DNA of 60,567 nucleotides from the IMG/VR virus record IMGVR_UViG_3300043772_002095. The stretch is one strand, 5' to 3'. The notes beneath the pieces are model-generated. The model was not told where the DNA came from and did no database searches. It saw nothing but the letters and a program-made list of their open reading frames with translations. This DNA comes from an uncultured virus (IMG/VR IMGVR_UViG_3300043772_002095) (lineage: Duplodnaviria; Heunggongvirae; Uroviricota; Caudoviricetes). Of this stretch, positions 44,267 to 60,484 are shown in pieces. Made by a program: the position numbers and the translations under genes. Each line of letters starts with the position of its first letter. The first letter of the stretch is position 1.

Positions 44267-44354
44267 AGTCAGGTGGCGGAATTGGTTAGACGTAATCAAT
44301 AGGAAAGCGACCAGCAACAACTGGTTTACATAGGTTCGAATCCTGTCCTGACTA
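44267..44354 (+). ncRNA. Class II (Leu-like) tRNA scaffold lacking a pairable anticodon arm
   Basis: Acceptor AGTCAGG/CCTGACT; D region TGGCGGAATTGGTTAGACG; hairpin ACCAG-CAACAA-CTGGT; T arm ATAGG-TTCGAAT-CCTGT. Confidence 0.7.
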
Positions 44355-44935: not shown

Positions 44936-45115
44936 ATGACAAAACTAATTTTAAAATCGACATTAGCAACAATAGGAACATTATTTCTACTTTATGGGTA
45001 TTTTCAATTGTGTCTGAAATACCCTATAACTATTTTAATAATTTTAGGAGTATTCCTTATAATATTAATTTTTCACGGGTTTTTCAAATTATTTAAAGGT
45101 AAAAATTTAAAATAA
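44936..45115 (+). CDS. 59-aa membrane peptide (not in ORF track)
   Basis: MTKLILKSTLATIGTLFLLYG...; two hydrophobic segments. Confidence 0.55.
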   Translation: MTKLILKSTLATIGTLFLLYGYFQLCLKYPITILIILGVFLIILIFHGFFKLFKGKNLK

Positions 45116-54481: not shown

Positions 54482-54503
54482 TTTTTTTTTGTATCTTTGT
54501 AAT

Positions 54504-55775
54504 GTGATAACAGAGAAACTAAAAAATATACCACAATTTCCTGGATGTTATTTATTCAAAGATGACAAAGACCAAATAATCTATGTTGGTATGTCAAAAT
54601 TCTTACCAAAAAGAGTTACATCCTATTTCCAAAAAAATCACGATAATCAAAAAACAAAATACCTTGTTGAACAAATTAAAGATGTTGATTTTGTTATAAC
54701 TTCTTCAGAACAAGAAGCAATTCTAATGGAAGAAGAACTTATTAAAGTTTACAAACCAAAGTTTAACATAAAAGGTAAAGATGATAAAACAAGAAAGTGG
54801 TCAATCTGTATAACAGATGAAAGATTTCCAAAACTTGAAATTGTTAGAAACAATACAGATAATAGAGATAGTTTAGATTTCACAAGTGGACTTCTTTGTA
54901 GAGAGGTTTATAACCTAATACACGACATTATAGACCTGAGAAGCTGTTCGTATGACCTTACCCAAGAAAACATTGATAAAGGTAAATTCAAAATTTGTTT
55001 AGAGTATCAAATGATGAGATGTTCAGGTCCTTGCGTAAACAAAATTACCGAGATAATATATCAATCAAAAATCCAATTGGTTAAAAAAATATTTGAATTG
55101 GATTTGAAATATGTTGAGAACAAATTGAAAAAACTTGTTAAGTATCATTCAGACAAATTGGAGTTTGAAATTGCGGGAAACTTACACTCAAAGGTAGAAA
55201 TGATTAAAGAACTTGAAAGTAAAGTTGAAACAATTAGAATCAGAAAATCAAATAAAAATGCTTTTGAACTTAAAAAGTTACTTAACCTTAACAACGTACC
55301 ATTAATCATTGAAGGTTTTGATAATTCACATAATCAGGGAGATTCTAATGTTGCCGCATCAGTTAGGTTTATAAATGAAATACCGAACAAGAATGATTAT
55401 AGAAAATATAATATAAAATCTTTTCAGGGTATTGATGACTATGCGTCTTTTGATGAGATTCTTAACAGAAGATTTGGTAAACTAATAAAAGAAAAACAAC
55501 AACTACCTAATCTTGTTTTGATTGATGGAGGTAAAGGACAATTGAATGTTGCAATAAAAGTATTTGAACGATTAGGTATTCTAAACAAAGTTGACTTGAT
55601 ATCCGTATCTAAAGATAGTAATCATAAATCATCTATAATACATACAATAGATGGTAAAACCCATTCAATATTAAGTAATACTACATTTACTATATTGGGT
55701 AAAGTTCAAGAAGAAGTTCACAGATTTGTGATTAATTTTCACAGACAAAAACAAAGTAAGAAATTACTTAACTAA
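54504..55775 (+). CDS. uvrC: UvrC-like excinuclease (GIY-YIG + UVR + RNase H-like, no HhH); GTG start
   Basis: 'PGCYLF...IIYVG', 'KPKFN', 'CLEYQMMRCSGPC', 'LEFEIA', 'IEGFDNSH', 'DDYA', 'LIDGGKGQL', 'EVHRF'. Confidence 0.88.
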   Translation: MITEKLKNIPQFPGCYLFKDDKDQIIYVGMSKFLPKRVTSYFQKNHDNQKTKYLVEQIKDVDFVITSSEQEAILMEEELIKVYKPKFNIKGKDDKTRKWSICITDERFPKLEIVRNNTDNRDSLDFTSGLLCREVYNLIHDIIDLRSCSYDLTQENIDKGKFKICLEYQMMRCSGPCVNKITEIIYQSKIQLVKKIFELDLKYVENKLKKLVKYHSDKLEFEIAGNLHSKVEMIKELESKVETIRIRKSNKNAFELKKLLNLNNVPLIIEGFDNSHNQGDSNVAASVRFINEIPNKNDYRKYNIKSFQGIDDYASFDEILNRRFGKLIKEKQQLPNLVLIDGGKGQLNVAIKVFERLGILNKVDLISVSKDSNHKSSIIHTIDGKTHSILSNTTFTILGKVQEEVHRFVINFHRQKQSKKLLN

Positions 55776-59540: not shown

Positions 59541-59741
59541 ATGGAAATCAAATTTTATTGGAACGGAAGTTTTGCTGGAACTAATCACAGTATGACAATA
59601 AACGGAAAGAATATTAGATTAGGTGGTATTGTTTCAAATGAAAATGAAGCAAAACTGAAAGCAGTTGAGATATTGAAGCAAGATTATGGAATTGACTATA
59701 ATGTTGATGAAATAAAATTTGAGTGGGGTGGTCGTTTATAA
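59541..59741 (+). CDS. Cassette A hypothetical protein
   Basis: 66 aa; stop codon lies inside the cassette's right inverted repeat. Confidence 0.75.
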   Translation: MEIKFYWNGSFAGTNHSMTINGKNIRLGGIVSNENEAKLKAVEILKQDYGIDYNVDEIKFEWGGRL

Positions 59742-59745
59742 TGTT

Positions 59746-59799
59746 TTATAACGGCTGCAAATATATTGTCGTTTTAATGCAATATATTTGTTGTTAGCA
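59746..59799 (+). repeat. attC-like site 2
   Basis: TAAC-GGCTG-CAAATATATTG-TCGTTTTAATG-CAATATATTTG-TT-GTTA. Confidence 0.8.
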
Positions 59800-59816
59800 A
59801 TAGTTTATTTAATAAT

Positions 59817-60056
59817 GTAGATAGAATGCACAGTTGTGTTTTATCTTTGAAGATAACGGCAGGTGAGATGTATTATTCTCTGAAATAGGTTAGACTGCAC
59901 AGAACCGTAAATTCGGTTGTAGAGGTTGGTGATACCGTGACAAAAATCATCTATACTGCACACATACAGTATATCAGGATACGACAGAGGCTGAGAAGCG
60001 CATCTATGGGTGTAATAGCAGAGCCGACCTTGAGATATGTCGATACTGGTGCAGTG
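59817..60056 (+). ncRNA. Putative structured non-coding RNA carried as cassette B (strand and ends inferred)
   Basis: No long + strand ORF; visibly GC-richer than its surroundings; multiple stems including ACTGCAC/GTGCAGT and CAGTAT/ATACTG. Confidence 0.45.
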
Positions 60057-60071
60057 AATTTTTTTAATTAT

Positions 60072-60125
60072 TGCTAACGTCTGATGATAAACAATCGTTT
60101 TAATGTTGTTTATCATTTGTTATAT
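60072..60125 (+). repeat. attC-like site 3
   Basis: TAAC-GTCTG-ATGATAAACAA-TCGTTTTAATG-TTGTTTATCAT-TT-GTTA. Confidence 0.8.
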
Positions 60126-60148: not shown

Positions 60149-60415
60149 ATGAAAAATATGAATTTACCAGAAAAGATTAAACTGAATGGTTATGGAGAAA
60201 TGATTGAATTTTCTTTGACCGACAAACGAGAAATAAAATACTACGGAAAAACAAAAACATCAAACGAAAGTTTATGGAGAACCGATAAATTAAAAGATAA
60301 TGAAGTATTTTATCAAACTGAATGGGGTTGGGGTGTTTTTGTTGATGTGGATAAAATGGAAACCATTTCTTATCATGGAACAGATTGGGGAGGTCAAAAA
60401 ATAATAAACTCATAA
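60149..60415 (+). CDS. Cassette C hypothetical protein
   Basis: 88 aa; stop codon inside the right inverted repeat. Confidence 0.75.
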   Translation: MKNMNLPEKIKLNGYGEMIEFSLTDKREIKYYGKTKTSNESLWRTDKLKDNEVFYQTEWGWGVFVDVDKMETISYHGTDWGGQKIINS

Positions 60416-60430
60416 AATTTTTGATATTGA

Positions 60431-60484
60431 ATATAACGTCTGATGATAAACAATCGTTTTAATGTTGTTTATCATTTGTTATAC
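60431..60484 (+). repeat. attC-like site 4
   Basis: 50 bp (60434-60483) identical to 60075-60124. Confidence 0.8.

Follow-up and report, generated by a model that had tools for sequence, protein, structure and literature searches.

In phages T4 and T5, stable non-tRNA species are cut from the transcripts of tRNA clusters. GOLLD and ROOL are larger RNAs. Phage tRNA clusters also hold RNAs to which no function has been assigned, one class of which (theta) proved to be a ribozyme. The RNA described here is predicted near the end of a 60,567-nt stretch of DNA from an uncultured Caudoviricetes virus (IMG/VR record IMGVR_UViG_3300043772_002095), which is referred to as a whole as the window. Like the theta ribozymes, as described in excerpts of PMC10879173, it is a small RNA at phage tRNA 3′ ends, with probable Bacteroidota hosts and mostly CCA-less tRNAs. 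Unlike theta, described from the gut in the same excerpts, the present family is of freshwater origin, includes stand-alone copies with a predicted promoter and has appended 3′ modules; neither a nested double pseudoknot nor the P1.1/J4/2 cytosine was found in it (0/43 homologs). With GOLLD and ROOL (excerpts of PMC5737381; see also PMC12286853) it shares a structured nature, proximity to tRNAs and occurrence in phages, but it is 70–205 nt long, abuts the tRNA end exactly and has no Rfam match to either. The small stable RNAs of T4 and T5 are also tRNA-cluster products; neither the full element nor its core matched any of 50,697 GenBank phage records.

The copy in the window lies between attC-like sites, for which the closest described system is Polaribacter phage P12002L, with a phage-borne attC array lacking an integrase. 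The attC sites of P12002L were predicted and, of six, P12002L_attC1 is the sole site without IntI1 recombination (excerpts of PMC9892861). The window sites match this phage with 79% identity over 52 nt, between its methyltransferase genes, and have the ends and the central motif in common with P12002L_attC1. Unlike the P12002L array, the cargo here is a putative RNA gene, and the site that appears to travel with it is on its 5′ side. Gene-less cassettes of the Vibrio superintegron have documented promoter activity (bioRxiv 2023.11.21.568050); sRNA, ncRNA and Rfam do not occur as whole words in the text of that preprint. The present cassette is likewise one without an ORF and with a putative promoter, but this promoter is predicted to serve a conserved structured RNA that has relatives outside cassettes.

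No description of the family was found in the literature on such phage RNAs, and the passages returned from the Minerva preprint and from PMC7162821 contain nothing on it. A total of 8,495 unnamed IMG/VR RNA candidates have been catalogued (PMC10690425); its tables, as distinct from its alignments, contain no matching motif or contig identifier, and the RNA may be an unnamed entry among these candidates. We conclude that these modular phage RNAs, linked to the ends of tRNAs, form a real family that has not been named, here with a putative promoter in an attC-like cassette. It is a compact, covariation-supported family outside Rfam, placed exactly at tRNA ends. The window also suggests that an attC-like cassette can carry a full RNA gene with its own promoter, and RNA cassettes are one explanation for some 'empty' cassettes.

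The window and its attC-like cassette

The window has a GC content of 28.5% and contains PHROG matches to a sigma factor, a primase and an SbcC-like protein. A repeat containing TAnnTTTG, the sigmaA −7 box of flavobacteria (excerpts of PMC9723704), is dispersed through it, ahead of many genes. From these genes and promoter-like repeats, we infer that the source is a large phage of a Bacteroidota host; the hosts of the related large freshwater phages are probably Bacteroidota as well. The nearest virus record shares 45% of sampled words with the window, and the RNA locus is outside the part that this record covers. At least half of the words of the window are present in 11 sequencing runs and, with the possible source run excluded, nine of the ten are labelled as lake water or freshwater. 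Copies of the repeat are found directly 5′ of start codons at 45109, 45690, 47705, 51045, 54476 and 58669. The window also encodes a UvrC-like protein (54489–55775) with GIY-YIG and UvrC RNase H domains, in a phage-like contig.

The initial annotation proposed a cassette with intact ends, GC-richer than its surroundings and devoid of a long plus-strand ORF, that carries a structured RNA. These points are borne out. The cargo is located between palindromic TAAC..GTTA sites at 59749–59796 (site 1) and 60075–60122 (site 2) and is bounded by complementary R boxes, GTTAGC at 59793 and GCTAAC at 60073, the same as in a related cassette at locus L219. Its GC content is 0.396 against 0.285 for the window, a value reached by 0.23% of 260-nt windows, and its longest plus-strand ORF has 46 aa. 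A third site, at 60434–60481, is near-identical in its letters to site 2. The neighbouring plus-strand ORFs, of 66 aa (59541–59741) and 88 aa (60149–60415, itself in a cassette), belong to no Pfam or PHROG family.

Among 45 entries examined, an attC-like site lies upstream of the RNA in two, the window and L219. The two loci are alike in site 1 and the cargo (88.6% identity over 370 nt, ending where site 2 begins) and differ in the upstream DNA and in the downstream site (n = 2), the body of site 2 being replaced by a different site in L219. The unit thus appears, from these two loci, to travel together with the site that lies 5′ of it, an arrangement in which the RNA gene would be inverted relative to a classical attC. 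Its presence in two neighbourhoods between such sites agrees with carriage as a cassette. Capture in a cassette is likely but secondary: most homologs are located in phage tRNA clusters without such sites. The first 31 nt of site 2 have exact matches in 61 IMG/VR stretches, and no cargo homolog was found within 1.5 kb of these 61 loci. In large IMG/VR contigs (L007–L067), many short units with small ORFs, unrelated to one another, are delimited by this repeat. Among five phage records searched, a PF00589 match was found in one, as a short tyrosine-recombinase match (L272, G004:C1:61698-62066) in the 318-kb record G004, which carries a type C RNA; no PF00589 match was found in the nearest virus record, which is 24% complete.

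Structure and modular composition of the RNA

The putative non-coding RNA is predicted to span 59854 to ~60058 on the plus strand, about 205 nt rather than the roughly 240 nt given in the initial annotation, whose stems are nevertheless all present in the sequence. It begins with a 5′ core (59854–59918) with a fixed 5′ end, YAACGG. The core comprises P1 (59859–62/59895–98), P2 (59865–68/59877–80), a UGAAA motif (59881–85), which we take to be T-loop-like, and hairpin P3 (59903–07/59914–18), listed earlier as AACCG/CGGTT. In the window, the core is followed by hairpin P4 (59928–59951), which has an invariant 12-nt loop and compensatory changes in two of six pairs and is found in type A only, and by a 3′ rod domain (59955–60055). 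The rod is built from P5 (59955–61/60049–55; two compensatory pairs), P6 (CAGTAT/ATACTG, 59967–72/60043–48), P7 (59982–86/60038–42; one compensatory pair), P8 (GGCT/AGCC, 59989–92/60022–25; one compensatory pair) and P9 (60000–04/60009–13), with a possible pseudoknot between two large bulges (59974–78/60028–33). The T run reported after the stems is present, as seven T at 60059–60065 following P5, and may be a terminator tail of this lineage; it is absent from most homologs, and a terminator scan found none there.

Stems in excess of chance emerge from the comparison of homologs, for which folding energy alone is insufficient: the cargo does not fold more stably than shuffled sequences (z = −0.18 for the plus and −0.87 for the minus strand; −0.7 to +0.4 for separate domains). 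Across 13 distinct type A rows, 99.4% of the cells are paired under a ten-helix model, as against 35–45% in slid controls. Nine pairs (17 cells) change on both sides, a level reached by none of 500 shuffles, although the model was drawn from the same related rows that tested it. As the homologs are close (mean column identity of 93%) and related, these changes are not independent. Compensatory changes occur in seven of ten proposed helices, P1, P2, P3, P4, P5, P7 and P8. P6, the pseudoknot and P9 are proposed but unproven, because the first two never vary and P9 changes on one side only; for P6, covariation thus speaks neither for nor against. In the core, aligned over 35 distinct rows, six of 12 pairs covary, with 48 cells changed on both sides against a shuffled mean of 13.4. 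G-U frequently replaces A-U in the helices, and an independent DNA run contains a P3 variant with a new loop and the stem kept. An RNAalifold alternative, pairing the core with the 3′ end and adding a local hairpin, has no compensatory change and three broken pairs, and P1 and P5 were therefore preferred to it.

The initial annotation named as grounds for doubt a lack of covariation and the conservation of a minus-strand frame of 91 aa (59841–60116). Compensatory changes are found in the homologs, and the frame is judged spurious, being interrupted by stops in 13 of 13 homolog rows; its variable columns (17/22/15 by codon position) have no third-position bias. Stops also occur in the 46-aa plus-strand frame in nine of 13 rows. 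A protein-coding gene was rejected on the grounds of the interrupted frames and the absence of third-position bias. The comparison of homologs indicates that the cargo is almost certainly a real, conserved, folded non-coding RNA.

Motif scans revealed full-length relatives in IMG/VR at 86–87% identity, and homologs in viral and metagenome contigs are 86–93% identical across the element. A gapped 5′ pattern was found in 89 stretches of metagenomes and 14 of viruses. When loci L102–L237 were filtered more strictly, 68 loci remained with duplicates, 40 of them distinct, or 47 distinct entries including the window when the upstream flank is counted. About 20 bases of the core were specified in the search patterns, and their invariance is therefore built in. 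The ~70-nt core is common to all 47 entries, and what comes after it varies: 17 entries, the window among them, are of type A, 22 of type B, two of type C and six have other 3′ parts. The RNA is modular, a widespread 5′ core being fused to a rarer, interchangeable 3′ module. L151 and L203 have the core alone, the next tRNA starting 69–70 nt from the core start. The 3′ domain of type A turned up solely behind the core (three of five records, all type A; five matches in 44 sources), and each of the five phage records searched contains one strong copy.

Type B (L142, L158, L183, L140, L214, L105) extends ~115 nt from the core start. It comprises the core, an invariant 5-bp hairpin, a small pseudoknot with one covarying pair and a segment that may form a closing stem with the 5′ end, in which no compensatory change was found. 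A hairpin comes next, in most cases followed by tRNA-Arg. Type C (L181/L230, L201) has a different hairpin loop but shares the 3′ tail motif of type B. Three exact-motif scans gave chance matches only (six of six unrelated; 34 of 34; 12 of 14 unrelated and two already known). Ten pattern matches in GTDB genomes contained none homologous by eye, and a core model run on 151 genomes of one Bacteroidota order, with 30 candidates per genome scored and no positive control, found nothing.

The 5′ end, putative promoter and expression

Of the 47 entries, 33 have a T-arm motif upstream of the core. Without exception, the element in these 33 begins at tRNA position 74, the base next to the discriminator, and P1 begins at position 79. 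Twenty-two of the 33 follow one tRNA-Leu-like acceptor strand and 11 follow nine others. An adjacent upstream tRNA was called by ARAGORN in 16 of 46 entries, and CCA follows the discriminator base in only three of 46 other tRNA-like ends at these loci. In CCA-less precursors, the tRNase Z cut falls just 3′ of the discriminator base. At L193, a tRNA 5′ half precedes the core and a full tRNA follows it, a possible trace of recombination. A tRNA-Leu-like gene with atypical central arms (37 bits) is located at 44267–44354 of the window with no core behind it; similar genes with odd central arms are found upstream of L134, L148, L165, L172 and L207, and ARAGORN misses many such genes or labels them Pyl, Stop, Phe or Gly.

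Among the other 14 entries, L198 and L203 are cut by the contig end inside a tRNA-like tail, and L193 follows its truncated tRNA half. TAnnTTTG is found at offset 14–15 in five of the 14 entries without a detected upstream tRNA arm, including the window; three of these five loci represent one lineage. A TATTTAT motif occurs at offset 14 in two entries, and L102, L127, L138 and L211 lack both a tRNA and a recognised box. In the window, the putative sigmaA −7 box is located at 59842–59849 on the plus strand. According to excerpts of PMC9723704, TAnnTTTG occupies positions −12 to −5, which places the predicted +1 on 59854, the equivalent of tRNA position 74. The first stem of the initial annotation, TTATCT/AGATAA (59841–59856), exists as a sequence; as an RNA stem it is lost in most homologs and it overlaps this box, so it is reassigned as a probable promoter element. 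An inverted repeat over the box (59818–59846 in the window) is intact in L219 and L166 and decayed in the window.

Runs with small word shares were left out of the search for transcripts. One freshwater metatranscriptome contig matches 59748–59978 at a depth of 3.3; it begins upstream of the predicted start at 59854 and indicates presence in an RNA library only, where DNA carry-over is possible. The flanking genes are not covered in RNA run X9 (six of 30 bins), and run X18 touched only a site; with contigs at a depth of 2–3, these runs are too shallow to be informative.

Candidate identities and possible functions

The family was not recognised in the initial annotation, and a scan of the cargo against Rfam 15 agrees with this, with no match at the gathering score. 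Weak matches at E up to 10 are at chance level (14–18.5 bits, against gathering scores of 40–91), and at E up to 1 the scan of 20 homolog loci gave only tRNA and reverse-strand tRNA look-alikes. With its start at tRNA position 74 and P1 at position 79, the element is placed like theta/HDV-like ribozymes, whose cleavage-site G is within 5 nt of a tRNA 3′ end, a likeness of position only; the nested double pseudoknot with the J4/2 cytosine is present in 0/43 homologs, according to our own descriptor, which accepted 0/43 shuffles and 50/50 synthetic controls. A hammerhead was rejected, the CUGANGA and GAAA core being present in 0/14 type A rows, with no Rfam match. So was a tRNA or tmRNA, as the element matches neither RF00005 nor a tmRNA model and ARAGORN gave no gene in L102. 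A retron or other reverse transcriptase template RNA was likewise rejected, PF00078 (RVT_1) being found in none of five records, 70–96% complete, and in three of 14 controls. Twister-, pistol- and T-box-like motifs, considered by eye, do not fit the covariation and have no Rfam match. A suspected likeness between the 3′ domain and the 23S L11-binding domain (H43/H44) was also discarded as mimicry. Its score against that domain alone was reached by 10–250 of 1000 shuffles in a post-hoc comparison; against the whole E. coli rRNA set, 35–121 of 200 shuffles scored as high, as did 258–500 of 500 when two rRNAs of the order to which a Crocinitomicaceae genome belongs were used.

The best explanation, with a probability of about 0.5, is that the element is a stable trans-acting RNA, made either by tRNA 3′ processing or from its own promoter, that binds a host factor; the part of this that concerns trans action and two routes is slightly the safer bet. 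In tRNA clusters, the RNA would be co-transcribed with an upstream, mostly CCA-less tRNA, and the cut of host tRNase Z after the discriminator base would free its 5′ end. Outside clusters, as in the window, a sigmaA-type promoter would give the same 5′ end, which would make the RNA self-sufficient and open to capture as a cassette with a promoter and no protein. That a single 5′ end would be reached by two routes suggests that what matters is the RNA itself. The conserved unpaired junctions and the T-loop-like motif might form a tertiary surface for a host protein with a role in translation or tRNA metabolism (a nuclease or a defence protein, for example), to which the RNA would act as decoy or scaffold, although this part is a guess that we hold as doubtful; the 3′ modules would adjust stability or the partner.

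The exact tRNA register at all 33 linked loci would favour the main alternative, a 70-nt core that is a new self-cleaving ribozyme, functionally analogous to theta but with another fold, freeing the 3′ end of the upstream tRNA, with the 3′ modules as passengers. Its size and conserved junctions suit a small ribozyme, the hosts are probably Bacteroidota with mostly CCA-less tRNAs, as for theta (excerpts of PMC10879173), and in type B the two ends of the RNA may pair with each other right at the junction, though the closing stem so formed has no compensatory change. The lack of an HDV-like fold in 43/43 homologs excludes the theta class only; cleavage is made unlikely by the absence of Rfam ribozyme matches at E up to 1 in 20 loci and of a hammerhead core in 14/14 type A rows, and by promoter-driven copies with 0–5 nt before the core, where there is little to cut. 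A shade less likely still is a ribozyme class unlike HDV and theta that matures tRNA 3′ ends and is also carried as an RNA-only promoter cassette. Type B fills the space between tRNAs, the next one, mostly tRNA-Arg, being 136–146 nt from its start, which would suit an element that acts in cis on the processing or stability of tRNA operons, as a protein-binding or nuclease-guiding spacer, and does not exist as an RNA in its own right. In the cassette, it would then act mainly as a promoter for downstream genes, an activity known for gene-less Vibrio cassettes (excerpts of bioRxiv 2023.11.21.568050), and the start of the RNA-library contig upstream of the predicted start agrees with this. Yet copies far from tRNAs (the window, L102, L127, L166 and L219) retain all of the 205-nt structure and have compensatory changes in it, which is more than a pure promoter cassette needs, and we rate a cis-acting module below either form of ribozyme. 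Quite improbable is a non-autonomous mobile element with tRNA 3′ ends as its insertion target, whose structure serves mobility by being recognised, as ssDNA or RNA, by a recombinase or reverse transcriptase. The fixed register behind different tRNAs, the resemblance of the RNA 5′ end to the TAAC start of attC-like sites and the truncated tRNA 5′ half upstream at L193 would accord with insertion, but the element is single-copy in 5/5 records, RVT_1 is found in 0/5, most homologs have no closing GTTA, and the exchange of A-U for G-U fits an RNA.

At L102, one of the copies distant from tRNAs, a short intergenic hairpin with complementary ends is located ~60 nt upstream of the element and is possibly a further small RNA.
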